Below are positions 8,434 through 27,688 of a DNA stretch of 27,701 bases, one piece after another. The stretch's first letter is position 1; every line of letters starts with the position of its first letter. The translations under genes and the position numbers were made by a program. Under the pieces are notes generated by a model. That model had not been told where the DNA came from. It made no database searches and saw nothing but the letters and a program-made list of their open reading frames with translations. The stretch lies in the IMG/VR virus record IMGVR_UViG_3300027956_000033, positions 1 through 27,701 of that record, one strand, 5' to 3'. Source of the DNA: a virus (Duplodnaviria > Caudoviricetes).

Positions 8434-9552
8434 GTGGTAAGCGCACCCCCGCTGCTGCCGCTGTCGAGTTCGCCGCCGTCGTATTCACCGCCGCTGGTTC
8501 CGCCAAATACGGTTCCACCGCTGCAGCCGACGCCGCCTCCGCTCGAGCCGAGTCCGCCAGCACCGTGGACCGGTCCGCCAGGACCACCAGGACCACAGGG
8601 CGAGCAGGGTCCGACGGGGGCCACCGGTCCGCAGGGCGAACAGGGTGATACCGGCCCGCAGGGGGCGCAGGGCGAACAGGGCGAGCAGGGAATCCAGGGT
8701 CCGCCAGGTGGCGCTCCGTCCTGGCAGGGCGAGTGGTCGGCGGCGGTCGACTACGCCAGCAACGACGCGGTCAGCCTGGACGGTTCGAGCTTCTATGCTG
8801 CGGGCGATCCGTCACTCGGCACCGCGCCACCATCGGCACCGTGGCAGCAGATCGCGGCCAAAGGCGACACCGGCCCGCAGGGCGTCCAGGGGCCGCAAGG
8901 TATCCAGGGACCGGTTGGCCCGCAGGGCGACCAGGGGCCGACCGGCGCGCAGGGCGCAACGGGTGCCACAGGGGCGCAAGGTATTCAGGGTCCAGCAGGC
9001 GCGACTGGTCCAGAGGGACCGCAGGGTGATCCTGGTCCGCAGGGCGCTACAGGCACAACGGGCGCGCAGGGTCCGAAGGGGGACACTGGCGATACCGGCG
9101 CGCAAGGCATTCAGGGTCCGCAGGGCATTCAGGGCGTACCAGGAACGCCAGGTGCCGCGGGCGAGAAGTGGTTCACCCAGGCCGGCGCACCGGCAGGTGG
9201 CACTGGCGTCGTCGGTGACTGGTCGCTTAACTCAACGAACGGCGACTACTACGAGAAGACGGGTGCCTCAGCCTGGACGCTGCGCGGGAACCTGCGCGGC
9301 CCGCAAGGGATTCAAGGCATCCAGGGACCAGCGGGTACGACGGGCTCGCAGGGGCCAGCCGGTCCTGGCGTCCCGACAGGCGGCACCACCGGCCAGATTT
9401 TGGCGAAGACCAGCGCGACGGACTTCGCGACGGCGTGGCAGAACGTCATCGTGACGCAGACGATGTGGGATGCGCTGGTCGCGCGGGTGGCGGCGCTCGA
9501 GGCGCGGCCAGTTATCAATTCCATTGACGACCTGGTGTACGGGCCAGCCTGA
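8434..9552 (+). CDS. Collagen-like fibre protein with a CBM5/12-like insert, 372 aa
   Basis: Long Gly-X-Y runs ([12 protein letters not shown]); [24 protein letters not shown]...PW module; [13 protein letters not shown] and [10 protein letters not shown] motifs typical of phage fibres. Confidence 0.85.
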
Positions 9553-15284: not shown

Positions 15285-15405
15285 GGAACACCATCGCGAT
15301 CGCCATGTAGATCGCCCATAGCTGGTGCGCCACGGTCGAGACGGTCAGGAGGACGAGGCAGGCCAGCATGGCGTACGCGACCAGGGGGTGGACTTCACCG
15401 TCCAT
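15277..15405 (-). CDS. Small hydrophobic membrane protein, 42 aa
   Basis: MDGEVHPLVAYAMLACLVLLTVSTVAHQLWAIYMAIAMVFRA; TGATG coupling. Confidence 0.55.
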   Translation of the reverse strand: MDGEVHPLVAYAMLACLVLLTVSTVAHQLWAIYMAIAMVFRA

Positions 15406-15854
15406 CAGAGGTCCGTCCAGCCGCGGTCGGGGGTCCAGACCGCCGTTCCGCTCGGGTGGGCCTGCCAGAAGATCTCTTCCTCGAGCGCCATCTTCAGCGC
15501 GTCCCTCGGCGGCTCCTGGACGAAGTACATCTCCAGCGCGGCGACGTCTGCGGGCCGCAGGCTACGCGTTTCGCCGGTGTCGTCGGTACGGACGATGACG
15601 ATCGGGCCGGCGAGGCGGCTGTGGCCCAGGTGCGCCGCGAAGCGGTTCGGCTCGGGCCGATCCTCGCGGATCAGCGCGTCGTCGTCGCAGAAGGCGTAGA
15701 AGCCCTGGCGGCGCAGGCTCGGCGGCAGGCCGCAGGTGCCGAGGTTCCCGCCGACCAGGCGCAGCAGTTCGCGGTAGTCGTCGCCGTCGATCTTCTCGGA
15801 GCGCAGCGGTGCTGCCCCTCCAGGCAGCACCAGCACAGTCACCGGGCGGGTCAT
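15405..15854 (-). CDS. DUF3846-like protein, 149 aa
   Basis: YRELLRLVGG, AFCDDDA...PEPN..A, LAGPIVIV..D..GE..SL pattern; ATGA coupling at 15854. Confidence 0.7.
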   Translation of the reverse strand: MTRPVTVLVLPGGAAPLRSEKIDGDDYRELLRLVGGNLGTCGLPPSLRRQGFYAFCDDDALIREDRPEPNRFAAHLGHSRLAGPIVIVRTDDTGETRSLRPADVAALEMYFVQEPPRDALKMALEEEIFWQAHPSGTAVWTPDRGWTDL

Positions 15855-16708
15855 GGCAGTTTTTTGGCGACGCTGATGACGTCGCCGTCGGTGACCGACG
15901 CCGCGGCAGCATTGAAGTCTTTGGCGGCGACGATCGTCGTTTCGGTCCTGGTGACCGTGTAGGTGACCACCCATTCGATCAACCCGGAAACCACCCCGTT
16001 AGCGGGTGTTTCCGCAACCTTGGGCGGAGAAACTGGCACCGTGCTAGGCATCTGAAATTGCTCCTTTTTTGGCTCTCTGTTGGGGCCGCGGTTCGTCCCG
16101 CGGCGGGGCACGCCAGCGGCGTCGAGCGTCTCGTACAGGCGGGTCGTACCGATGTTGTAGGCGCGCATGATCTCGGCAATCGTCTCGCCGGCGACGTACG
16201 CGTCGATGACTTCCTGGCGCTCTTCGAGCGACAGCGGCGGTCGAAAATTGGGCGGGGCGTCGGAAACGGGAGTTTCCTCCTTTGGTGGCGGAACGACGGC
16301 GTCGTAGTGGGGTAAACCGCGGGGCATTACCGACTTGAGAATCATCTCGTCTGCGATCTGCGCGGGCGTTTTGCCGGCATCGATCCCTTTCTCAATTTCG
16401 CGATCGAACTCGGCGTCGATGACGACGTCCAGGACGGCATCGCGAACACTGATTGGCTTGATCAACGGGTCAGGTCGTTCCACGATCTGCGGTTCTTTGA
16501 GGTCGACTTCGTTGATCAGCGCGCGGTTCGACGGTGATAGGTGCAGGCGCTTGAGCTCTTTGCGCCGTTTCACTTCGGCCCTTTCTGCCTGCAGCGCAGG
16601 CTTGATGTACTGGAAGTAGCAGTGCGCGCACTGGTCGTGGCCGGCGTGCGCGGTGCCCATGCAGCCCTCTCCGCGGTACTGGCACTTGCGGTGAGAGGAC
16701 GAGGCCAC
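15851..16708 (-). CDS. Putative DNA-binding protein: N-terminal Cys4 Zn finger plus HTH, 285 aa
   Basis: CQYRGEGC...CAHC; HTH-like EVIDAYVAGETIAEIMRAYNIGTTRLYETLDAAGVPRRG. Confidence 0.7.
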   Translation of the reverse strand: MASSSHRKCQYRGEGCMGTAHAGHDQCAHCYFQYIKPALQAERAEVKRRKELKRLHLSPSNRALINEVDLKEPQIVERPDPLIKPISVRDAVLDVVIDAEFDREIEKGIDAGKTPAQIADEMILKSVMPRGLPHYDAVVPPPKEETPVSDAPPNFRPPLSLEERQEVIDAYVAGETIAEIMRAYNIGTTRLYETLDAAGVPRRGTNRGPNREPKKEQFQMPSTVPVSPPKVAETPANGVVSGLIEWVVTYTVTRTETTIVAAKDFNAAAASVTDGDVISVAKKLP

Positions 16709-16709
16709 G

Positions 16710-17042
16710 TCAGTGGCCTGTCCTACTAGCTGCGCGCTCTTTCTCGGCTGCGGCCTGGAGCTTGGGGACGACCTGGTCGCGCCATCCCTGCTTCGTCTCG
16801 TCGGTCCAGGAGCGCACCGCGGGATTCTTCACGAGCTCTCCGAGCATGTTCAGCAGCGCGCCGAGCGGGGCGTAGGTGCGAACCGTGGCATGCGCGCCTT
16901 CGACGCCCCATCCGCGGATCTCGACTTTGCTCTGCCCGTCGTAATCCGCGAGCAGGGTGACGATGTCAGCGGTGTTGACGTACAGCGACGGTATCTCGCG
17001 CCCGTCAAACTGAAGGCGCGGCAGTTCAAGGAATGAGTTCAT
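16710..17042 (-). CDS. Hypothetical protein, 110 aa
   Basis: Tiles the minus-strand operon. Confidence 0.65.
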   Translation of the reverse strand: MNSFLELPRLQFDGREIPSLYVNTADIVTLLADYDGQSKVEIRGWGVEGAHATVRTYAPLGALLNMLGELVKNPAVRSWTDETKQGWRDQVVPKLQAAAEKERAASRTGH

Positions 17043-17056
17043 GCGAGATCGGGGGC

Positions 17057-17305
17057 TTACGCCCCCGCCTCCTTTCCCAAGGTGTCGAGTACACGGCTGA
17101 TTTCGGCCAGCCCATCGTCCGCGCGCAGGTAGGCAAGGTGGTAGAGGGCTTCGCTGCCGTTGTCCTGGCGAACGACCACGTACGCGCCGTTGTCGACGTT
17201 GTTGCGGTCGCGCTGATCGGGCTTGCGGTTATCCAAAGTGCGTACGTCGGCAAGAGTGCCGATCCGCAGCAGTTCAACGGGATCTCCCCATCGTCCGTAG
17301 ATCAT
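17057..17305 (-). CDS. Hypothetical protein, 82 aa
   Basis: SD GGAGG and TGATG coupling at 17305. Confidence 0.65.
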   Translation of the reverse strand: MIYGRWGDPVELLRIGTLADVRTLDNRKPDQRDRNNVDNGAYVVVRQDNGSEALYHLAYLRADDGLAEISRVLDTLGKEAGA

Positions 17306-17466
17306 CAGTCTTCCTCCGGGCACTCTTCGTGGCGCGGGTTGGCGTTGACGCAGTCGCCGCACACGGTGATGTCGCCGTCGCAGTTCGAGCACTCGACGGT
17401 GAAGCGGCGGGCAGTCTCCTGCCCACAGTTCTCACACGCGCGGAGCGTGTTCTCCAGGTAAGCCAT
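17305..17466 (-). CDS. Cys-rich putative double Zn-finger microprotein, 53 aa
   Basis: Missing from the ORF track; MAYLENTLRACENCGQETARRFTVECSNCDGDITVCGDCVNANPRHEECPEED; TAATG coupling. Confidence 0.7.
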   Translation of the reverse strand: MAYLENTLRACENCGQETARRFTVECSNCDGDITVCGDCVNANPRHEECPEED

Positions 17467-18464
17467 TAGTCGTCCTTTCCGAAGATCTCTTCGTATGTGC
17501 GGCTGTAGCCGCGGGCCTTAGCCTCAGCGAGGCTCACAGGTGGCTTCCATGCGGCTGACGGGGCCGCGGCTGGAGCGGGCGCCGTAGCGGCGACCAGGTC
17601 CAGCAGTTCGTCGGCGGATTCCTCCACGCCTGTCTCGGGGTCGATCTGCGCCGAAGGCGTCGGCGCGGCGCTGGCGGCGGTCGCTTGCGCGAGCCGCACG
17701 CTCATCGGGATGGCTTTCGCGCCCCACGGCAGACCGTACTTGTCGGCGCAGGTGGGGCCGTAGCCGGCGGTCAGGGACTCGCGGGTGTCCAGGTCGCGAC
17801 CGCAGATGAAACATTGCGAGCCTTCCTGGGCGAAGGCCAGACCAGCGATCAGCCACTCGTCCTGCCGCTCGGCGGCGTCCAGGATGTTGATGGCGTCGCG
17901 GACACGGTCGCGGAGGCCACCCTGCGCGGAGCGCCAGATGCGGAGGTCGCCTTGCGGGGCGATGTGCGCCACTCCCATCCACTCGTCCCCACCCGACCGT
18001 GTCGAGATGACACGCGAGCCTGCCAGCTTTGAGTCCTGGCCGGCCAGCTTGATGTACAGGGCGATCGACTCGCCATCGGGAAGGGTGATGCGGTAGCGCC
18101 CGTCGGGCACGATCGCCAGCGTGACGTGAATCTGCGGCGCTGCCGCGGCGGGGACGTTGCCAGCGTACGCGGGCTTTTGCGCCTTGGCCGCGAGGCGCCT
18201 GCGGGCGTCGGCCATCAGTACGTTCAGGACACCCTTGCTCTGACCGTCGGTCAGGAAGCCAGGAATCGCGACGCGATTCTGCATGTCGCGCATGAAGTCG
18301 TCGCCTTCGTCGCGGCACTGGTAGTTGGCGGCGTACAGGCTCGCGGCCTGACGGAGCTCGATCGTCATATCCGACGCCTCGAATTTGCGCCCAAGCGCGG
18401 CGCCAATTTTGAAGGCGGCGTTGAAGACGGAGCGGAGGTCGTCGCGGACTGGTGAGTTCTGCAT
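17466..18464 (-). CDS. DUF6011-like Zn-finger protein, 332 aa
   Basis: CFICGRDLDTRESLTAGYGPTC motif; ATG 18464 lies 7 nt after a -10 box. Confidence 0.75.
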   Translation of the reverse strand: MQNSPVRDDLRSVFNAAFKIGAALGRKFEASDMTIELRQAASLYAANYQCRDEGDDFMRDMQNRVAIPGFLTDGQSKGVLNVLMADARRRLAAKAQKPAYAGNVPAAAAPQIHVTLAIVPDGRYRITLPDGESIALYIKLAGQDSKLAGSRVISTRSGGDEWMGVAHIAPQGDLRIWRSAQGGLRDRVRDAINILDAAERQDEWLIAGLAFAQEGSQCFICGRDLDTRESLTAGYGPTCADKYGLPWGAKAIPMSVRLAQATAASAAPTPSAQIDPETGVEESADELLDLVAATAPAPAAAPSAAWKPPVSLAEAKARGYSRTYEEIFGKDD

Positions 18465-18522
18465 AGCACCTACTATAGGGCACCTACTGGAGGGGCTGTC
18501 AAGTTTCCCTCCAGTAAGTGCC
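18465..18522 (-). promoter_or_regulatory. Leaderless sigma70-like promoter with the -35 inside an inverted repeat
   Basis: TTGACA(18502-18497)-N19-TATAGT(18477-18472)-N7-ATG; IR 18479-18494/18507-18522 (15 of 16 positions match). Confidence 0.75.
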
Positions 18523-18526
18523 GGCA

Positions 18527-18712
18527 TTAGCGATTCGGCTCGTCGTCCGACTCGAGGACGGTGATCTCGCGCACCGCGGTCCAGCGCAGTGACAGATCGA
18601 TGGCCCACGCTTCTGCCTCTTCGTAGGTCGCGAAGCGGAGAGCGTTCTCCCCCCAGGGGGCGTCAGGTCGGTCGCCGCCGGTGCGGACGCCGACCTTGTA
18701 GCTGCGGCTCAT
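18527..18712 (-). CDS. Hypothetical protein, 61 aa
   Basis: W..NALRFAT.EEAE...DL..RW.AV motif; ATGA coupling. Confidence 0.75.
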   Translation of the reverse strand: MSRSYKVGVRTGGDRPDAPWGENALRFATYEEAEAWAIDLSLRWTAVREITVLESDDEPNR

Positions 18713-18981
18713 GACGGCAGCACCGCTTCCGGGTGCTCCTTGAGGTATGCCTCGAGCGCATCCTTCTCCGCGACCAGGGTCGCGCGGGCGGACTGCAGTG
18801 CCGCGATCATGGCGTCGATGTCGCGCACGCCGTACAGGTTCAGGACGGCGATGCGGCGCTGGTCGACCTGGATGTCGACACGCGCGAGGGCGATGTTCTG
18901 GACACCGACGAAGACGTCGGAGCGGACCTTAACCTCCCCGGTGAGGGGGAGGCGGGCCTGACGGCGGGATGTGATGGTCAT
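18709..18981 (-). CDS. Hypothetical protein, 90 aa
   Basis: SD CAGGAG before ATG 18981. Confidence 0.7.
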   Translation of the reverse strand: MTITSRRQARLPLTGEVKVRSDVFVGVQNIALARVDIQVDQRRIAVLNLYGVRDIDAMIAALQSARATLVAEKDALEAYLKEHPEAVLPS

Positions 18982-19196
18982 CGGGTGTAGCTCCTGGTGA
19001 GTGGGTCGTAGGCGTGCAGGAGAGGGCACCGCTCGGTAACGTGCTCCGGTCCTGGCGCGTGGTCGCAGCAGACGTAGTAGTCGGGATAGTTGCCCCAACC
19101 CTGGGCGCGACCGCCGCGGACACGGTGAGGGGCTGGCTGGCTGCACGCGGGGCCGTTACGTCCACCGAGCGGGACGGGGCAGGTTCGTTCTGTCAT
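18978..19196 (-). CDS. Cys/His-rich hypothetical protein, 72 aa
   Basis: ATG 7 nt downstream of the promoter -10; C..C..CCDH pattern. Confidence 0.6.
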   Translation of the reverse strand: MTERTCPVPLGGRNGPACSQPAPHRVRGGRAQGWGNYPDYYVCCDHAPGPEHVTERCPLLHAYDPLTRSYTR

Positions 19197-19549: not shown

Positions 19550-19902
19550 GCGATCGCGACACTCGCCGCCCATCGGAGGCGGAGAACAATGCGTGGTTTG
19601 CGTACCGCGCGATCGCGAAGAAACAGGGACGCGAAGCCGATGAAGTCGCGTTCCGTACCGGCTGGCGGCAGGGCTGCGGGTTCACCTTCGGGGCGACCAG
19701 CAAGCTGTCGCCGGCGATTGACGCATTCGTGGCGTGGATGGACTACGTGACGTCTTGGAGCGCGCCACTCCCACCACCCCCAGGAGAACAGGAGGTCGAA
19801 GATCCCGGTCCAGCGGGCAGTTACATGACGACGGCGCACATGGACGGCGCCGACACATTGGGCACAGTAGCTAGGAAGCCTACCCAGGCAGGAGCTCAGT
19901 AA
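19546..19902 (+). CDS. Hypothetical protein, 118 aa
   Basis: ATGA and TAATG coupling. Confidence 0.6.
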   Translation: MSDRDTRRPSEAENNAWFAYRAIAKKQGREADEVAFRTGWRQGCGFTFGATSKLSPAIDAFVAWMDYVTSWSAPLPPPPGEQEVEDPGPAGSYMTTAHMDGADTLGTVARKPTQAGAQ

Positions 19903-20555
19903 TGCCAATCCGCATGAACAAGCCGGGCGAGAGCTCGTTCGGCATCAACATCGAAGACACCTTCGACCCGAACGACGATCACACGGTCGAACTGGTCGAC
20001 ATGGACGAGTTCCAGGGTGTCAGCAAGATTGACGGCAAGCCGTACACCAGCATCGTCTGGAAGTTCGCCATCTACGACACCGACGGCATCGCGTTCACCA
20101 ACCTGATCGACGGTGGCGTGTTCGAGACGTGGCAGTTCTCGAGCCTGAGCCTGAGCGAGAAGTCGCAGGGTCGGGCGTGGGCGGCGGCGCTGCTCGGCAA
20201 GCCGTCGCTGACCGACGCTGAATGCGACGCGATCGCGGAGGCGTTCGACAGTGCGCTGGTCGGCAAGCAGGCGACGGCGTCCTGGAAGGTCGAGGACGTC
20301 AACGGCAACAAGCGGCTCAAGCTGGCGCTGCTGCGTCCGCTGCGCCGTCAACGTCCTGCTCCGCCGTCTACGGCACCGAAGCCGAAGCCTGCGCCGGAAG
20401 CGCCACCGGAATTCGTCACGCCGAATCCTCCGCCGCGGTCGATGCCGACGGCGAACGGCGCTCGAGAAACGGCAGCGGAGCGCCGTGCTCGGCTCCAGGC
20501 GGAGCTCGCGGCGATGCCCGAGGACGACGCCGATGCCGAACCCTTCAACGACTGA
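19902..20555 (+). CDS. Putative ssDNA-binding protein (OB-fold type), 217 aa
   Basis: SD AGGAG; beta-rich core, Pro-rich linker, acidic C-terminal tail DDADAEPFND; replication context. Confidence 0.6.
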   Translation: MPIRMNKPGESSFGINIEDTFDPNDDHTVELVDMDEFQGVSKIDGKPYTSIVWKFAIYDTDGIAFTNLIDGGVFETWQFSSLSLSEKSQGRAWAAALLGKPSLTDAECDAIAEAFDSALVGKQATASWKVEDVNGNKRLKLALLRPLRRQRPAPPSTAPKPKPAPEAPPEFVTPNPPPRSMPTANGARETAAERRARLQAELAAMPEDDADAEPFND

Positions 20556-21540
20556 GATCGTGCTGGCCGGGGAGACGGGAGTCTCCCTGGCTCAGCCAGA
20601 CCAGCGTGTCCTGTACCTGATCCAGGAGTTCGCGTCGGCGTGGAAACGCACGCTCGAGCTCTCGATCGACCTGGGCGAAGCCCTGATCGACCTGAAGGCT
20701 ACGCTGCCGCACGGTCAGTTCGGTCCCTGGCTCGAGCAGCACGCGCCGTTCACCGAGCGGCACGCGCGTCGGTTCATGGATCTGTGGGCAAATCGGACAT
20801 TAGTGTCCGAATTGCCGTCGGATACGGGCGTGACCGCAGCGATGCGGTGGGTTCAGGCGCAGCGTCGGACGCCGCGGCCTACGCCCGAGCATGAGCCCGA
20901 TATAGACGGCGTCGACGCAGAGGCCACCAGGGAGCCGCTGTTGCGGTTCTGGCTTCCTGGAGCCCCGACGCACGTCATCGTCAATCAGATGCTGCTGACG
21001 TTCTTCCCTGATGCCTCAACGGCGTTGGACGTGACTTATGGCTCCGGTAACTTCTGGAGTCAAACGACGCATCTCGCGGTCACCGGCCACGATCTGGACG
21101 AATACTGTGCGCCGGACGGTGTGATGGACTTCACCGATCTGAAGTACGACGACGCCAGCTTCGACGTGGTGCTGTTCGATCCGCCGCACATAGCCGACGG
21201 CGGAGACGACTCGGTGATGGCGACCAGGTTCAGCACGGTCGCGACGCAAACGGCGCTCGATGAGCTCATCCTGCAGGGCACGCGCGAGGCGTGGCGGGTG
21301 TGCGACAAGGGCATCATCGTCAAGGTGACGAACCACGTCCACGGTCGGCTCTTTCAGAACGAGGTCGACCTGGTAGCGGAGGCGCTCGGCTGGAACCAGC
21401 CGCTGTACGACCAGGTGCATCAGGTCCGCGACCATGCGTTCATCGATCCGTCCTGGGGCGAGCAGATGAGCGCGTACAACAACGGCTCGACGTTCCTGGT
21501 CTACCGTAAGGGATCGCAGATCCACGGCAGGAGGGGCTGA
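20533..21540 (+). CDS. DUF3102-like domain fused to an amino-DNA methyltransferase, 335 aa
   Basis: LGEALIDLKATLPHGQFGPWL...ARRFM (DUF3102-like); LDVTYGSGNFW (SAM-binding) and FDVVLFDPPH (DPPY-like). Confidence 0.8.
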   Translation: MPNPSTTEIVLAGETGVSLAQPDQRVLYLIQEFASAWKRTLELSIDLGEALIDLKATLPHGQFGPWLEQHAPFTERHARRFMDLWANRTLVSELPSDTGVTAAMRWVQAQRRTPRPTPEHEPDIDGVDAEATREPLLRFWLPGAPTHVIVNQMLLTFFPDASTALDVTYGSGNFWSQTTHLAVTGHDLDEYCAPDGVMDFTDLKYDDASFDVVLFDPPHIADGGDDSVMATRFSTVATQTALDELILQGTREAWRVCDKGIIVKVTNHVHGRLFQNEVDLVAEALGWNQPLYDQVHQVRDHAFIDPSWGEQMSAYNNGSTFLVYRKGSQIHGRRG

Positions 21541-21734
21541 TGATCACGGACGTACAGGTGTCGCGTGCGCTGGAGCGCATGCCGATCGAGATGATGGCGC
21601 TGTTCGAGACGATGCCGGAGGACTTCCAGAGGGCGTACCTGGCGTATTGGGAAGGACGACCTGATCCGCACGGCGCGCATCGTGACACGCTGCCCGCCTT
21701 TGTGGCTGGTGTGTTCACCGGACTGCGTCGCTGA
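21540..21734 (+). CDS. Hypothetical protein, 64 aa
   Basis: SD AGGAGG; TGATG coupling at both ends. Confidence 0.65.
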   Translation: MITDVQVSRALERMPIEMMALFETMPEDFQRAYLAYWEGRPDPHGAHRDTLPAFVAGVFTGLRR

Positions 21735-22219
21735 TGGCGATCGTGCTGGTTGCGGTTATGGCGCTAGCGCAGGTGATCTCAGACGGAGCGGAGTCGTATG
21801 AGTGGGCGCCGCCGGCGCTGCCGATTCCGGAAGAAACGGTCACGCTGGCCGACGAGGTTGGGTTGGATGCCGTTCAGCTACACGGTGCCGTAATGACCAC
21901 CAGGAGCACGCCACGCACGTACCTGGAGCATGAAGGGCTCCTGAAGCCTCCACTGCGGGCGATAGCTCCTGCGGGGCCGTCCTGGGGGCTGTGGGATCGA
22001 TTGGCCCAATGCGAGAGCGGCGGCAATTGGGCGTCGAACAGCAACCCGCGCTACAAGGGCGGATTGCAGTTCGATGCGCCGACCTGGCGCAGCTACGGCG
22101 GGCTGCAGTACGCGCCGAGCGCACATCTGGCGACGAAGGCCGAGCAGATCGCCGTCGCAGAGCGACTCCGCGCCGCACGCGGACTGCAGCCGTGGCCGGT
22201 GTGCGGTCGGCGTGTTTGA
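21734..22219 (+). CDS. rpf: Resuscitation-promoting factor (Rpf)-like lytic transglycosylase, 161 aa
   Basis: WDRLAQCESGGNW...YKGGLQFDAPTWRSYGG..YAPSAHLATKAEQIAVAERL....GLQPWPVCG; hydrophobic N-terminus. Confidence 0.9.
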   Translation: MAIVLVAVMALAQVISDGAESYEWAPPALPIPEETVTLADEVGLDAVQLHGAVMTTRSTPRTYLEHEGLLKPPLRAIAPAGPSWGLWDRLAQCESGGNWASNSNPRYKGGLQFDAPTWRSYGGLQYAPSAHLATKAEQIAVAERLRAARGLQPWPVCGRRV

Positions 22220-22379
22220 ACCGGGACCGGTTATCTACATCGAGATTCCGTTGTTCGAGTTTGAGCGTCTGCACGCTGAGATCCGCGAATTGACGTCCCT
22301 GGTGCATCGCTTCGCAGAAGAGAACGCTCGCCTGCGCGCGGAGAACGAACGGCTCAGCCGTGCGCTCAGTCACTCGTAA
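22212..22379 (+). CDS. Small coiled-coil protein, 55 aa
   Basis: GTG overlaps the rpf end; EENARLRAENERL heptads. Confidence 0.55.
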   Translation: MFEPGPVIYIEIPLFEFERLHAEIRELTSLVHRFAEENARLRAENERLSRALSHS

Positions 22380-22764
22380 CGGGGCGCGCTCCGCGCCGCG
22401 GCGTGGTCCGCCGGCGACGATCAAGCTCGGCGTATCCGAGACGCAGTTCCAGGAGCGCGTCAAGAAGCTGGCGCGCATGTACGGCTGGTGCGGCTGGCAC
22501 GTTAGTTTCTCGCACGGTGCCGTGACCGGCGCGCATACGCTCGGCCTGGGCGACGACCACTACGACTCGAACGGCATGCCGGACTGGATCTTCTGGAAGC
22601 CCGGCAGGCACGTTCTGTTCCGGGAGCTCAAGGCCAAAGGCAAGTATCTGAGTGTCGACCAGCGTCGGTGTCACGCGTCGTTGCGAGCCGCCGGTTGTGA
22701 CGTGGACGTGTGGCGACCAGGTGACGAAGACAAGGTGATCGCGACCTTCAGCGGTGTAACGTAG
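22360..22764 (+). CDS. VRR-NUC family nuclease, 134 aa
   Basis: SETQFQ..V, GMPDW, FRELKAKGKYLSVDQ, VWRP motifs. Confidence 0.85.
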   Translation: MRSVTRNGARSAPRRGPPATIKLGVSETQFQERVKKLARMYGWCGWHVSFSHGAVTGAHTLGLGDDHYDSNGMPDWIFWKPGRHVLFRELKAKGKYLSVDQRRCHASLRAAGCDVDVWRPGDEDKVIATFSGVT

Positions 22765-22779
22765 CCGCAACAAAACGAG

Positions 22780-22820
22780 AAACGCCGCCCCTGTTTCTTG
22801 ACCAACCAGGGCGGCGTTTT
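22780..22820 (+). terminator. GC-rich hairpin with T-tract; possible terminator/attenuator upstream of the replicase
   Basis: AAACGCCGCCC(22780-22790)/GGGCGGCGTTT(22809-22819)T. Confidence 0.55.
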
Positions 22821-22854
22821 CGGAAAGGACTCTGGCCCCGAGGGGCTTAGTCAC

Positions 22855-25800
22855 ATGAATACTACTACGACCGTTGTGGTGTCGTTCTTCCGTAACGAGA
22901 CGGACGTTCGGCCCCAACCGCAAACGTTCACAATCGAAGAGCTTTTCGAGCTCCTGACGAAGCATCAGCCGCGGACGCATAAACGCCGCGGCATGTTGTG
23001 GTCGCCGTTCCTGTTCAACGGTGCGCGCAAGGGCGAGAACCTGATTGAGAGCACGCTGCTCGCCTTCGACATCGATGACGGCACGTCACCCGAGCAGGTG
23101 GAGGAATGGCTCGAGGGACGCAGCTACTTCCTGGCGTCGACGCACTCGAGCACGCCCGAGCACTGGAAGCTGCGCGTCGGGCTGGTCCTGACCGAGCCGA
23201 TCCCCGCGGCGGACTTCGCGAGCGTGTGGCATTCCGCGGTCGCGGAGCTCCTGCACGGCCACGTCGATCCGTCGACGCACGATCTGGCGCGCATGTTCTA
23301 CCTGCCGACGGCGCCACCAGGCGCGGAGCCATACGCCGAGATCGCCTGGGGCGAGCCGCTGGACTGGCGATCGTTGCCACGGTGGGAGCCGCCCGAGCGA
23401 CCAGCGTTGCCCGACCTGGACGGCATCGAGGGGCTGGACGCTGGTGTCGAGCGTCGACGGGCGAAGCCGATGCTTCAGAAGTGGTGCCTGGACGTAGCGA
23501 ACGCGACCCCAGGCGAGCGGCATGAAGCGATCCTGAGGCTCGGACGGGCCGCGGGCGGGCTGGTCGGGTCAGGCGCGCTGGCGTACGAAGAGGCGTATGC
23601 CGAGTTCCTGGACGCTGCGGAGGCGTGCGGCGAGGTCGCTGACCACGGTCTGCGGGACGTCGACCGCGCGATCCGTGGCGCGCTGCAATACGGCATGGAC
23701 GAACCCTGGACGCCGGCACAGTTGGGTGACAGCGACGACTGGCTGACGGCGCCGAAAATCAAGCTCACCGGATCATCTGTTCCTGTTCCGCCTATGGGGA
23801 TGGGAACAGGGAACAGATCGAGTGCTCGAGGGCAACCCCCGGAGGGGGTTGGAATTTTGGACCCCATCAAGTGGCGTTCCCACCGTCAGACCGTGGATCT
23901 GCTGCCGCCCGACATCGACTGGTTCATCGACGGCATCCTGGGCCGCGGGCTGATCACCGAGCTCGTCGCCAAGGTGAAGATGGGTAAGACGACCTTCATG
24001 CTGCAGGGCATCCGCGCCGGTATCGCCGGCGATGACGAATACTGCGGTCGCGCGGTACATGGCCCGCTGCGCGCGGCGTACGTCACCGAAGAGGGCTGGC
24101 AGACCTTCCAGATCGCGATGATGCGTTACGGGCTGAACGACCTGGTCGACAACGACGCGTTCTTCACGGTCTTCGATTTCGAGACGGAAGACGTCGACGC
24201 TAAGAAGCCGAACCTGCCGTTCGTCATCGACTCGCTGATCCGCCACGCAACCGAAGACAATGTCGACGTCGTCATCCTGGACACGCTGAGCATCATCGCC
24301 AGCCTGGACGAGGAAGACCACTCGGGGCGGGCCGCGGGCGTCATGGCGGAGGTACGGCGTCTGTCGACCGCAGGCTTCGCCGTCGGCATCCTGCGCCACA
24401 GTCGAAAGAGCGGCGGCGACGTGGGTGACGCTGGTCGCGGCTCGTCCGCGATCTCTGGCTACTGCGACATCCTGCTGCAGATCGAGCCGTTCAAGGGTGA
24501 CGAGGACGCGACCAGCGCGCGGGTGATGCGGACCAAGTCACGGCTCGGCGTGTACGAGCCGCTGATGCTCGAGTTCGACAAGGCGACCGAGCGGTATTCG
24601 AGCAACGGCGCGGTCCAGTCCAGCCAGGAGCGGCTCGAAGCCGCGGTAATGAAGGCGCTGGCCGACCTGAACGCGACCAGTGAAGAGCAGGGCAAGACGT
24701 CGCTGGAGGTCACGGCGAAGAGCGGCAAGCGCAAGCAGGCGGTGACCGACATGCTCAAGACGCTGGTTGCCGAAGGCAAGGTGGCGTCGGCGTTCCGCGG
24801 CAGAACGGTTATCTATTGGCTCAAGCTGGTCATTCACCTGACGCATGAGGCGGCGGAAGAATCTGTTCCCGGAACTGCGGAACAGCCGGAACAGGTTGTA
24901 CAGGAGCCGCCGCGAAACCCCCTTACGGGGGTTTCGGTTGAAACGCTATCTGTTCCCGAAAATCTTCTCCCGGAGGGAGAGAAACGGGAACAGATAACCA
25001 AGCGAAAGGCGCCGACGGCGGAGGCGATCGCCAAAGCCGCGGAAAAGAAGGCGGCGCTGGAGCTCGCGCGGCTCGAGGCGGCAGACGCCGCGGCGCCGAC
25101 GCTGGAGTACCTGACGGTGCTGACCGACCAGGATCTCGTCGCGGCGATCGCGCGGCTCAACACGGTCGCATGCGCGCTGGACACAGAGACGACGGGCTTG
25201 AACGCGAAGCGCGACAAGTTGCGGACGATCAACCTGTCCGACGGGCAGACGCATGTCGTCATCGACGCCTGGGGCATCACCGACTGGACGCTGCTGCAGT
25301 CCTACCTGGACCAGGTCGGCACGGTCAGCATGCACACGTACCTGTTCGACCTGGCGTTCCTGGATGTGATCGGCATCAGGGTTAATCCCGACAAGGTGTA
25401 TGACGTCCGCACCGCGGCAATGGTCCTGGAGTCGAAGGAAGACTGGACGGATTACCGTCTGCAGGGCATCGCCAAGCGTCACCTGGCCGAGCACGTCTCG
25501 AAGGCCGAGCAGAAGCGGGGGTGGGACGCGCCGGTGTTGCGCCACGCCAAGCTGGCGTACGCCGCGGAGGACGCGCGGGTGACGCATGCCGCGGCGATCG
25601 CCGTCGCATCCAAGCTCCAGCAGGACGCCGACGTCGACGGGCTGTGGACGTGCCTGGCGCTCGAGCGTGACGTCCAGGCAGCGACCTGGTGGCTTGCCTC
25701 CGCGGGAGCGCCCGCCGATCGCGACGTCATGCGCGAAGCCGTGGCGGAACAGGAGGCGAAGCTGGCCGAGCATCTCGAGATTCTGAATGCGACCGCTGGC

Positions 25801-26802
25801 GAAGCCACCGTCAACTGGCGCAGTCCGAAGCAGGTGCTGCCTATCCTGATCGAGCGTGGTCTGGATGTTGAGTCGACCAGTGAAGGGGCGCTGATGGATA
25901 CGGTGATGGGCACGGAGGCGCCGATCCCGCTGGTCAGTGCGCTGCTGAGTTACCGTTCGGCCAGCGCGTGCCTGGGCCTGCTACGCAGAGCGCAGAGCAG
26001 CATCCAGGACGATGGGCGGATCTATGCGTCGTTCAATCCGATCGGCGCGCAGACGGGCAGGACGTCCTGCTCCGACCCGAACCTGCAGAACCTGCCGCAC
26101 GATACCCGAGCTCGCGAGGCGATCCGCCCGCCGACGGGACGCGTCTTCGTCCGTGCCGACTACTCGCAACTGCAGCTTGTCATCGCGGCCTGGATCGCGC
26201 AGGACGCCGAGATGCTGAAGGTGCTCAACGACCCGCACGGCGACGTCCACCAGCGCACCGCGGAAGCGGTCGGCTGCACCAGGCAGCAGGCGAAGGCGGT
26301 CAATTTCGGGTTCCTGTTCGGCGCCGGCTCGGAGACGTTCCAGCGTGAGCAGCGGAAGAACGGCGTGTACCTGACCGAGCAGCAGGCGTGGCGGTATCGC
26401 GAGACGTTCATGCGGACGTACCGCGGCATCCGCTCCTGGCACAAGTCGCTGAGTGATTGGGGCACGGAGGAAGTGATCTACGATCCGTCGGGCTCTGGAC
26501 GTCGCCGTGCGGCAGTCTTCAGCAAGAACGTCAAGGCCAACACGCCCGTCCAGATGGTCGAAGCGCACGGTTTCAAGCGTGCCCTGCAGGTGCTCTACAA
26601 TAGCCGACATGAAGCACCGTCGGCGCGGCTCGTCATGATGGTTCACGATGAGCTCATCGCTGAGTGCGATGCCGACGACGTGGAGCGGACGCAGAAGTGG
26701 CTGTGCAAGGGCATGCTCGAGCCGATGCAGGCGCTGCTGCCAGGCGTCACCGTCCGTGTCGACGTCAAGGTGACCAGGAGCTACGCCGACAGTGACAAGT
26801 AA
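22855..26802 (+). CDS. polA: Primase - RecA-like helicase - 3'-5' exonuclease - family A DNA polymerase fusion, 1315 aa
   Basis: AEP-like FDIDDG/STHSS/DLARMFYLP; Walker A AKVKMGKT and Walker B VILDT; Exo I ALDTETTG, Exo II FDL, Exo III YAAEDA; PolA TGRTSCSDPNLQN, ADYSQLQL, RQQAKAVNFGFLFG, VHDE. Confidence 0.9.
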   Translation: MNTTTTVVVSFFRNETDVRPQPQTFTIEELFELLTKHQPRTHKRRGMLWSPFLFNGARKGENLIESTLLAFDIDDGTSPEQVEEWLEGRSYFLASTHSSTPEHWKLRVGLVLTEPIPAADFASVWHSAVAELLHGHVDPSTHDLARMFYLPTAPPGAEPYAEIAWGEPLDWRSLPRWEPPERPALPDLDGIEGLDAGVERRRAKPMLQKWCLDVANATPGERHEAILRLGRAAGGLVGSGALAYEEAYAEFLDAAEACGEVADHGLRDVDRAIRGALQYGMDEPWTPAQLGDSDDWLTAPKIKLTGSSVPVPPMGMGTGNRSSARGQPPEGVGILDPIKWRSHRQTVDLLPPDIDWFIDGILGRGLITELVAKVKMGKTTFMLQGIRAGIAGDDEYCGRAVHGPLRAAYVTEEGWQTFQIAMMRYGLNDLVDNDAFFTVFDFETEDVDAKKPNLPFVIDSLIRHATEDNVDVVILDTLSIIASLDEEDHSGRAAGVMAEVRRLSTAGFAVGILRHSRKSGGDVGDAGRGSSAISGYCDILLQIEPFKGDEDATSARVMRTKSRLGVYEPLMLEFDKATERYSSNGAVQSSQERLEAAVMKALADLNATSEEQGKTSLEVTAKSGKRKQAVTDMLKTLVAEGKVASAFRGRTVIYWLKLVIHLTHEAAEESVPGTAEQPEQVVQEPPRNPLTGVSVETLSVPENLLPEGEKREQITKRKAPTAEAIAKAAEKKAALELARLEAADAAAPTLEYLTVLTDQDLVAAIARLNTVACALDTETTGLNAKRDKLRTINLSDGQTHVVIDAWGITDWTLLQSYLDQVGTVSMHTYLFDLAFLDVIGIRVNPDKVYDVRTAAMVLESKEDWTDYRLQGIAKRHLAEHVSKAEQKRGWDAPVLRHAKLAYAAEDARVTHAAAIAVASKLQQDADVDGLWTCLALERDVQAATWWLASAGAPADRDVMREAVAEQEAKLAEHLEILNATAGEATVNWRSPKQVLPILIERGLDVESTSEGALMDTVMGTEAPIPLVSALLSYRSASACLGLLRRAQSSIQDDGRIYASFNPIGAQTGRTSCSDPNLQNLPHDTRAREAIRPPTGRVFVRADYSQLQLVIAAWIAQDAEMLKVLNDPHGDVHQRTAEAVGCTRQQAKAVNFGFLFGAGSETFQREQRKNGVYLTEQQAWRYRETFMRTYRGIRSWHKSLSDWGTEEVIYDPSGSGRRRAAVFSKNVKANTPVQMVEAHGFKRALQVLYNSRHEAPSARLVMMVHDELIAECDADDVERTQKWLCKGMLEPMQALLPGVTVRVDVKVTRSYADSDK
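23775..23850. repeat. Inverted-repeat cluster 1 (CTGTTCC/GGAACAG) in the primase-helicase linker
   Basis: ATCTGTTCCTGTTCC(23775-23789)/GGAACAGGGAACAGAT(23803-23818); AACCCCC-GGA-GGGGGTT(23834-23850). Confidence 0.75.
24861..24996. repeat. Inverted-repeat cluster 2 (CTGTTCC/GGAACAG) in the helicase-exonuclease linker
   Basis: ATCTGTTCCC 24861; GGAACAG 24879, 24888; CGAAACCCCC-TTAC-GGGGGTTTCG 24913-24936; TATCTGTTCCCG(24947-24958)/CGGGAACAGATA(24985-24996). Confidence 0.8.
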
Positions 26803-27688
26803 GCCAGCATCGCTGCGGGAGCCGCACTGGTCTGCCTCCAGGTTCATGCTCTTCGAGCAGTGCCCGAGGTTGTACAAAGACCGCTACATCGACGGCATCG
26901 CCACGGAACCGAGTCTGGCGATGCTGTTTGGATCAGCCGTTCACACTGCTCTGGAGGCACTGCACCAGGGGCAAAGGGGGACGTGTCTTACCGCTGCAAG
27001 CAGCGGCGAAGACCACTACCGCAGCGCCAGGGCGCTGTACGCAGAGCGGTTCGATGCGATGAACGCGCGGCTCGAAGAGCTCGGACTGTGCGCGCCGGCG
27101 TCGCTGTACGCCGAGGGTCTGCGGATGCTGAACCTGGTCGAAGACCTGAATCTGAATGCCGATGGTCGCAGCGAAGCTGAACGCTGGTTCACGCTGCCGA
27201 CCAAGTCGACGTGGGGTCTGCCGACGATCGGCGCGGTTGACCTGTGGTCGCCACCGTGGTCGGCGCATGGCGCGGTGGTGTGGGATTTCAAGACGACGGT
27301 CGGCGCCTGGGGCGCGGAGCGCGCGGCGCGCGAACGCTGGCAACCGATGCTGTACGCGTGGGCCTACAAGCGTGCCTATGACGTCATCCCGACGTTTCGT
27401 TACCTGGTCCTGAGCCGCGCTAGCGGAACGTCCCAAGTCTTCGACCGCGGCTGGTCGCAACGTGAGTGGCGGGAGGACTTCAGCGCGCTGCACTTCCAGG
27501 CCGAGGCGATTGCAGAAGCGATCGACCAGGGGCAGTTCGACTGTTCCCGAGGTCACGGAACGTGTCTCGAATGCGGCGAGCCGTACGGCCACGATCACGT
27601 CTGCGATGACGCGCCGCGGCCATCGAAAATCAGGCTGGTCAAGAAGCACGGTCAGACCTGGGTTCAACCTGCGCTGATCGAGGCGTAA
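26792..27688 (+). CDS. PD-(D/E)XK (RecB/Cas4-like) exonuclease, 298 aa
   Basis: WSASR....EQCP..Y..RY, FGSAVH.ALE, E...GAVD...WDFKT, Q...Y.WA, C-terminal Cys cluster. Confidence 0.85.
   Translation: MTSKPASLREPHWSASRFMLFEQCPRLYKDRYIDGIATEPSLAMLFGSAVHTALEALHQGQRGTCLTAASSGEDHYRSARALYAERFDAMNARLEELGLCAPASLYAEGLRMLNLVEDLNLNADGRSEAERWFTLPTKSTWGLPTIGAVDLWSPPWSAHGAVVWDFKTTVGAWGAERAARERWQPMLYAWAYKRAYDVIPTFRYLVLSRASGTSQVFDRGWSQREWREDFSALHFQAEAIAEAIDQGQFDCSRGHGTCLECGEPYGHDHVCDDAPRPSKIRLVKKHGQTWVQPALIEA

Follow-up and report, generated by a model that had tools for sequence, protein, structure and literature searches.

The 27,701-bp stretch of Caudoviricetes DNA considered here (IMG/VR record IMGVR_UViG_3300027956_000033, positions 1 to 27,701; hereafter the window) contains a gene for a single polypeptide in which an archaeo-eukaryotic primase (AEP), a RepA-like helicase, a winged helix, a proofreading exonuclease and a family A DNA polymerase (PolA) follow one another, and the linkers on both sides of the helicase carry arrays of short DNA boxes (Table 1). 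We read it, with somewhat better than even confidence, as a self-loading covalent replicase that would bind its own gene, unwind it, prime and extend; these activities are all predicted, on the basis of the open frame, intact catalytic residues, folds and the lack of a second primase, helicase or polymerase in the main frames. The origin is likely written into the two linkers, and array 1, the helicase, the winged helix and array 2 likely form an origin-plus-initiator cassette. At the level of aligned sequence, in-frame exchange of this putative cassette between near-identical genes is shown for two pairs.

The replicase frame runs open from ATG 22855 to the stop codon at 26800-26802; a TTG in frame at 22798 is a possible earlier start (+19 aa), and no clear Shine-Dalgarno sequence precedes 22855. 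A preliminary description, made from the letters of the window alone, had proposed one uninterrupted 1315-aa frame with primase, helical domain, helicase, winged helix, exonuclease and PolA, and a self-priming, self-unwinding enzyme. Frame and domain calls are upheld by Pfam, PHROG and AlphaFold folds, and such a replicase is still the best reading of the predicted activities. The description also named support across both linkers as the check to make, and this came out in favor of the joined gene. A 1513-bp contig equal to 23625-25137 (0 differences, 0 gaps) spans both linkers in two of the four runs examined, these two being possibly of one campaign and one of them possibly the window's own source; the runs X3 and X4 gave only parts derived from relatives. 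All 15 5'-complete sequences (8 distinct genes) are single open frames of 1315-1348 codons, free of stops and frameshifts, and the helicase-exonuclease-PolA fusion is common to 19 relatives (993-1325 aa) found in JGI, ENA, Logan and further records. Chimeric assembly or erroneous joining of separate genes might be suspected from the sharp identity breaks at the linkers described below, yet it is refuted by the identical bridging contigs in two runs, the 8 open-frame genes and the 19 fused relatives across record sources, and we give it practically no weight.

By its modelled fold the N-terminus is an AEP, for which de novo priming is predicted. Residues 40-160 match PHROG 9765 'DNA primase' (4e-16), and an AlphaFold model of aa 1-300 (pLDDT 92.8) has an AEP fold followed by a four-helix domain that has no Pfam match of its own. 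The model resembles S-2L PrimPol (Z 9.6, root-mean-square deviation (rmsd) 3.5, 142 aligned; Foldseek E 8e-6) and RepB' (Foldseek E 3e-5), with LigD PolDom and PriS also in the top rows; a sequence search of solved structures gave no match for the primase or helicase parts. Conservation was counted in 148 of 150 matches: the Asp residues of motifs I and III are kept in 147 (D72), 146 (D74) and 148 (D138) of these and all are present in the window, while motif II position 99 is His in 86 and Ser in 50, as in the window, and R107 occurs in 147. Arg in place of the motif II His is a mark of the DR0530-like family (PMC5862659), a likeness that is a positional match by our own reading, set against the family description only. 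The Arg-hydrophobic motif IV of the PrimPol-PV1 supergroup was assigned by position to R146-M147 after D138 (Arg in 138/148); motif and family definitions are those of PMC5862659, also PMC9943667 and PMC3273815. As a separate observation, the Prim-Pol (PF09250) domain of relatives P0004-P0020 (L004, L005, L006, L009, L011 and L021) has G-L-h-D-h-A-P-D as motif I, not hhhDhD, its first Asp apparently lying 2 residues upstream, which might mark an active variant or a weakened primase; P0021-P0023 retain DLD.

The helicase gives an AAA_25 match above its Pfam cut-off (aa 351-520, E 1e-13), and K378, E412, D476, H515 and R563, which we take by position to be the Walker A Lys, catalytic Glu, Walker B Asp, sensor His and arginine finger, are invariant in 19/19 aligned proteins. 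A model of aa 335-660 (pLDDT 86.4) aligns with RSF1010 RepA (Z 20.7, rmsd 3.4, 218 aligned), and the final 70 residues of the model align with winged-helix domains (4kmf, Z 10.9, rmsd 1.2, 62 aligned). Further Pfam matches are a 3'-5' exonuclease (aa 754-912, 3e-17) and DNA_pol_A (aa 960-1311, E 9e-51); Pfam found no 5'-3' exonuclease domain in the protein. The exonuclease DxE, the Asp of PolA motifs A and C and the Arg/Lys/Phe of motif B are likewise invariant (19/19), D1102, R1143, K1147, F1151, D1265 and E1266 of the polymerase being intact.

Each of the two linkers carries an inverted array of a single 7-bp box, CTGTTCC. It occurs 14 times in the window against 2.8 expected, a count reached in 0/100 shuffles, and within the gene 9 of its 10 copies sit in 390 bp of linker, where they occupy both strands and every one of the three frames; no pair of control windows out of 500 reached 9 copies. 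When the 7-mer control was extended to 12 genes, 8 passed (≤10/500). In both linkers the boxes surround CCCCC-N-GGGGG palindromes with 3-4 nt loops. In array 1 the boxes are followed by a palindrome around CCCCC-GGA-GGGGG (23836-23848), and array 2, the most structured of 69 tiles (z –6.4), has a perfect 10-bp inverted repeat (24913-24936) and a 12-bp one (24947-24996). Array 2 begins 38 bp past the winged helix and consists of 2 forward and 3 reverse boxes, as in the iteron layout of the Staphylococcus aureus pathogenicity island (SaPI) type.

The box differs by lineage. Linkers 1 and 2 hold, respectively, 4 and 5 copies of GCCGTCC in L001, 6 and 6 of GGTWCC in L005, 2 and 3 of TTCTTCTC in L021 and 3 and 7 of CTGTTCC in L004, and each relative has the same box type in its two linkers where both are present. 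Where two genes share a box (12 pairs) their winged helices are 38-92% identical; where the boxes differ (54 pairs) the figure is 17-39%. Polymerase identity is not tied to the box (90% between the window and L001, with different boxes; 64% between the window and L004, with the same box). Among 13 proteins available without DNA, at least 8 encodable CTGTTCC sites were found in 6/6 with a winged helix at least 50% like that of the window and in 1/7 others (the exception is P0011; Fisher P = 0.005), in a check that includes kin and for which GGTWCC is uninformative. Since the boxes change in concert on both sides of a 750-bp helicase, we argue for a sequence-specific binder, although linkage contributes.

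The exchange itself is seen in identity profiles. DNA identity between the window and L001 is 83-97% ahead of 23755, 28-75% from there to about 25030 and 62-96% beyond; for L005 and L009 the figures are 93-100% ahead of the block (73% in the first tile), 47-75% within it and 85-98% beyond. The breakpoints, near 23765 and 25023, lie just outside the arrays, in conserved coding sequence, and a strain with the alternative cassette co-occurs in the same two runs. Four other gene pairs were compared and lack the pattern, L004/L011 being alike throughout and three pairs too distant. At the protein level, identity of the window to P0002/P0003 is 95-97% over the primase, drops to 51-53% over the helicase and is 90% over the polymerase; compared with P0004 the primase is unrelated, the helicase 87% and the polymerase 74% identical.

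Several points weigh against the reading of a self-loading replicase with its origin in the linkers. The 7-mer control fails for 4 of the 12 genes (L006, L007, L008, L027), in part from single-linker genes or fixed windows that cut boxes. Boxes were read by eye and chosen after looking, and the thresholds of the peptide check were also set afterwards. Array 1 is unremarkable in unbiased tiles (z –1.2 and –0.7) and stands out only when hand-cut. Box and winged helix are linked, and co-inheritance explains part of their covariation. The linkers have 57-63% GC, only mildly AT-richer, with no long AT-rich melt, and GC skew is positive around the whole genome, with no switch and no origin signal. 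As to the helicase, RepA (20.7), KaiC (20.1) and T7 gp4 (20.0) are tied by Z, Foldseek puts KaiC first, and the first Walker A residue is Ala.

Some of these points would suit arrays that are operators or structural elements, for instance for autorepression, termination or recombination, with the origin elsewhere. The palindrome at 24919-24931 scores terminator-like, the skew has no switch, two arrays 1.1 kb apart could loop and repress, and a separate hairpin lies upstream of the start (22780-22819). However, terminator-like sites are at chance level (4 versus 2.5), an origin fits better a position in mid-gene that flanks the helicase and winged helix and lies right past the latter, and the cassette ends just outside the arrays, in conserved coding sequence. 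We therefore find operators or structural elements quite unlikely. No sigma-70-like promoter was found in 22300-27000.

In the mechanism we propose for the self-loading replicase, the winged helix would bind the CTGTTCC boxes of arrays 1 and 2, and RepA-like rings would be loaded at these sites with no help from a host loader, in the manner of SaPI Rep on its oppositely oriented iterons. Opening of the duplex may be helped by the palindromes, the AEP domain would prime, and the tethered exonuclease-PolA would extend, with several copies per ring. Array 2 would be the origin usual after such a gene, now read through into polA, and array 1 a second site. As the binder has to fit its boxes, array 1, helicase, winged helix and array 2 would move together in frame, and their exchange would alter origin specificity and leave primase and polymerase in place. 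Comparable systems are SaPI Rep/PriRep5 and staphylococcal cassette chromosome (SCCmec) Cch2, self-loading primase-helicases with a C-terminal winged helix (PMC9371898, PMC7581432); SaPI Rep binds oppositely pointing iterons directly downstream of the winged-helix coding sequence (PMC9371898). In SaPI and SCCmec, however, an AAA+ helicase goes with an intergenic origin that has an AT-rich centre, whereas the arrays of the window are translated in frame, flank the helicase, have a C/G palindrome centre and are followed by PolA.

It is also conceivable that the chain is a polyprotein whose linkers are cleaved to release primase, helicase-winged helix and exonuclease-polymerase, a case in which the arrays may still serve as origins. 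PREX of Apicomplexa, the nearest solved polymerase after Aquifex PolA, is proteolytically processed (PMC7689252), which counts against a covalent replicase, both linkers are about 50% Pro/Gly/Glu/Ser/Thr, and there is a recorded exonuclease-polymerase form of 625 aa, P0271, which lies on a 42-kb contig and begins just past the linker. On the other hand, linker residues are not conserved among aligned relatives, so that no cleavage motif is visible, and the DNA boxes explain the linker peptide sequence. P0271 may be a truncated or miscalled copy of the fused protein, because it clusters at 90% with a 1325-aa fusion; it keeps the conserved junction segment before the exonuclease (aa 721-748), which is probably helical. 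Overall we hold processing to be unlikely, if the most serious of the alternatives. A free exonuclease-polymerase had also been suggested in the preliminary description, from an internal GGAG...GTG start at 25117. We rejected this start: it is present only in records of the window's own genome and in 0/11 other distinct genes with a readable junction, and its use would remove the conserved junction segment.

The polymerase appears to be of the Aquifex/PREX type (best PDB matches 8jrb, E 3e-42; PREX, 6e-33; Klenow, 2e-26), and NCBIfam PRK14975 gives 330 bits, below its 640 cut-off. The preliminary description supposed an evolution independent of PREX; as regards the polymerase this is doubtful, because the closest solved relatives are Aquifex PolA and PREX. 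The pocket of the window's polymerase is altered at three residues, Q1107 (codon 26173), F1155 (26317) and E1236 (26560). Aquifex PolA and PREX have E in motif A and Y in motif B; the corresponding stretches of the window protein are DYSQLQ and NFGFLFG, so that the Glu710-Tyr766 pair of family A is replaced by Q1107 and F1155. The third residue, the motif 6 Glu, is at what we take to be Klenow position 852, counted from Q849. In 240 PolA sequences Gln/Phe occurs in 53, all 53 of which have the motif 6 Glu, compared with 0/187 sequences with Glu710; in 41 further PolAs (4 near-copies of earlier ones) it is found in 14/14 Gln forms, one of which keeps Tyr, and in 0/27 others. These 67 pocket sequences are not independent events, since one clade is not rejected: FastTree places them in two groups, and two origins, which we considered, were dropped as the approximately unbiased test does not reject a single clade (P = 0.535, 44 rows, trait columns dropped). 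Arg712 is also replaced (Val/Ile/Ala) in the close clade. The change is not needed for fusion, because fusions with an ordinary pocket exist.

We suggest that the pocket is probably rewired, not broken, with Glu1236 possibly supplying the carboxylate that the steric gate has lost. The E710-Y766 bond is invariant according to Hohlbein et al., who describe E710Q as a slow mutator and Y766F as near normal (PMC3715850); that E710Q alone cripples Klenow speaks against our view. Alternatively, the polymerase might be low-fidelity, ribonucleotide-tolerant or modified-base-accepting and serve priming, repair or diversification, the host replicating the bulk. The Gln at the steric gate, the mutator phenotype and low incorporation rate of Klenow E710Q (PMC3715850), the Phe at the Y766 position shared with 2-aminoadenine polymerases (PMC10201439) and the loss of Arg712 in the close clade would agree with it. 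Nevertheless Gln never occurs without Glu at 852, the exonuclease and polymerase residues do not vary in 19 proteins, a primase is already in the chain, and Klenow E710Q gained little in rUTP binding constants (PMC3715850, Table 1). With DpoZ the window shares only the Phe at B4; DpoZ profiles score 65.5 bits of the 500 needed and no PurA/PurZ-like gene (PF00709) was found in 2 complete genomes (14/14 controls positive), on which grounds a Z-base genome was rejected as well. We consider a relaxed polymerase very improbable. No natural Gln variant at the steric gate was found in literature listings.

Primase and helicase types vary around this polymerase. Among the 19 closest relatives (P0002-P0020) the window-type AEP is present in 2 and Prim-Pol (PF09250) in 15, the N-terminus being missing from the record in 2, and in P0021-P0024, P0121 and P0122 either primase type is joined to a DUF3987 helicase (viral contigs of P0021 and P0024 were looked for and none was found). 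In 38 more distant long proteins with the same polymerase type (P0395-P0432) we find DUF3987 (18), Prim-Pol (12), D5_N (4), DUF3854 (2) and VirE (1), with Prim-Pol and a helicase family both listed in 11/38. The fusion is thus recurrent, and many more long fusions, so far uncharacterised, are seen in metagenomes. P0399, P0413, P0423 and P0436 are related PolAs with methyltransferase (PF01555, PF02086), intein/HNH or uracil-DNA glycosylase families.

The principle of the fusion is known already from Pas55, gp55 and PREX, and what is new is the parts list. Phage primase-helicase-polymerase fusions were noted in 2016 (Kazlauskas et al., PMC4889955): Pas55 of Actinoplanes phage phiAsp2 and gp55 of Lactococcus phage 1706 join, like the window, primase, helicase and replicative polymerase in one polypeptide. 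Pas55 is DnaG, SF3/VirE and PolA and gp55 is AEP, SF3 and PolB, unlike the AEP, RepA-like superfamily 4 (SF4) helicase, winged helix and Aquifex/PREX-type PolA of the window. PREX has the same order of primase, helicase, exonuclease and PolA but a TOPRIM primase where the window has an AEP, is processed and keeps Glu710/Tyr766. Among the bacterial members of PolA cluster 8 ('Hot Spring 1') about 7% have a fused AEP (Czernecki et al. 2023, PMC10201439); helicase and linker arrays are not mentioned in the available text, and the available supplement gave no AEP match. The 'Pyrovirus' 3173/OS3173 PolA polyprotein comes from a phage of about 40 kb with a related PolA, and its N-terminal helicase is fused or separate by species (PMC7689252, PMC10423840); it differs by a DUF927 helicase, the lack of an identified AEP in the parts available, thermophilic Aquificae hosts and 26% identity to the nearest record. 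Corynephage BFK20 gp43 fuses an AEP to a RepA-like SF4 helicase, with dNTP priming shown (PMC4889955, PMC4538821), but has no exonuclease or PolA, and its AEP is of the Prim-Pol family, like most relatives and unlike that of the window. Narrow sets of search terms found no AEP, SF4 and PolA fusion, two-sided exchangeable cassette or natural Gln/Phe/Glu pocket in the literature, and the PolA entries viewed in the Kazlauskas et al. supplement have no AEP-SF4-PolA row. The interpretation in the preliminary description is upheld in part: the phage fusions of 2016 and the AEP joined to this PolA subfamily in 2023 precede it, and it did not mention the linker arrays, the in-frame exchange or the altered pocket.

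Table 1. Features of the replicase gene and its surroundings (window coordinates)
Feature	Position	Strand	Basis
Fused replicase gene, 1315 aa	22855..26802	+	open frame, Pfam, relatives, bridging contig
AEP primase-polymerase catalytic domain, predicted (aa 5-178; D72, D74, D138, R107, R146)	22867..23388	+	PHROG 9765, conservation, fold
Four-helix domain after primase (aa 196-281), in place of PriCT-type domain	23440..23697	+	model; PriCT_1 in relatives and look-alikes
Exchanged cassette: array 1, helicase, winged helix, array 2 (1.26 kb)	23765..25023	+	strain joints, identity profiles of two pairs
Origin-like array 1, linker 1: CTGTTCC forward 23777, 23783; reverse 23803, 23810	23777..23851	.	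motif count, palindrome
RecA-fold, RepA-like helicase (aa 337-586; K378, E412, D476, H515, R563)	23863..24612	+	AAA_25, invariant columns, fold
Winged-helix domain (aa 589-657), predicted origin-binding	24619..24825	+	fold; covariation with box sequence
Origin-like array 2, linker 2: CTGTTCC 24863 (+), 24879 (-), 24888 (-), 24950 (+), 24987 (-)	24863..24996	.	
Conserved Ala/Lys/Glu-rich junction segment (aa 721-748) before exonuclease	25015..25098	+	alignment; kept in P0271
3'-5' proofreading exonuclease (D776, E778, D832, Y902, D906)	25114..25590	+	Pfam, alignment
Family A polymerase, Aquifex/PREX-like	25732..26787	+	Pfam, PDB matches, alignment
Candidate single-strand binding protein, 217 aa, acidic C-terminal tail	19902..20555	+	DUF669/DUF2815 look-alikes, TM 0.66-0.69, predicted models
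VRR-NUC-like endonuclease upstream	22360..22764	+	Pfam 22.2 bits (below cut-off); PHROG 93 E 3e-14
PD-(D/E)XK exonuclease overlapping replicase stop codon	26792..27688	+	Pfam, PHROG

The whole window recurs, identical, within a complete phage record of 41,315 bp that has terminal repeats. Encoded in the rest of that record are terminase subunits, a 657-aa frame that matches no family and a 2822-aa M23 and glucosaminidase protein; no second primase, helicase or polymerase was identified among the main frames scanned there. The 2822-aa protein (L013 7176-15644, plus strand, outside the window) takes 1/5 of the genome and is probably a virion or ejection protein. Carriers of the sequence are freshwater sediment metagenomes, with no RNA datasets listed among them. 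Partial relatives labelled Chloroflexota, from a binned genome, give a weak hint of a Chloroflexota host. No close cultured phage was found: among the matches listed, GenBank exonuclease-polymerases reach at most about 26%, primase matches in GenBank phages are 'virulence-associated E' primases (27-31%) with none for the helicase, and a search of genome collections gave nothing beyond a 26% match.

Around the replicase gene, the candidate single-strand binding protein has no Pfam or PHROG match. A 16-bp inverted repeat (22780-22819) and a small CCCC-GA-GGGG palindrome (22836) precede the replicase start. Inside the replication block, 21734-22219 (plus strand) encodes a small protein with a PF06737 transglycosylase domain (E 3e-28), a family that includes resuscitation-promoting factors and is of interest for a phage of slow-growing hosts. 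A fusion of DUF3102 with a DNA methyltransferase-like domain is encoded at 20461-21540 (plus strand), a collagen-repeat protein lies among virion genes at 8434-9552 (plus strand), and a block of reverse-strand genes with HTH, DUF3846 and DUF6011 matches occupies 15405-19143, over which GC skew stays positive.

Taken more broadly, and tentatively, since we would put this wider view at rather less than even chances, the gene may be a complete one-frame replicon with an exchangeable core: kin phages would trade the cassette to switch origin specificity, primase and helicase types would mix around a polymerase whose steric-gate carboxylate would have moved to another helix, and PREX of malaria parasites would possibly be a captured member of this wider family. 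If true, cassette trading between co-occurring phages would be a way of escaping interference or imposing it on kin. At least 5 box types with matching winged helices would make a natural binder-site panel in one gene, with which origin recognition, self-loading and tethered priming and extension could be tested by simple swaps, and primer-free amplification or orthogonal replication could make use of a minimal replicon of one gene. The textbook rule on ribonucleotide exclusion by family A polymerases would be put to the test by the Gln/Phe/Glu pocket. Finally, the many fusions around PREX-type polymerases may bear on the origin of the apicoplast replicase.

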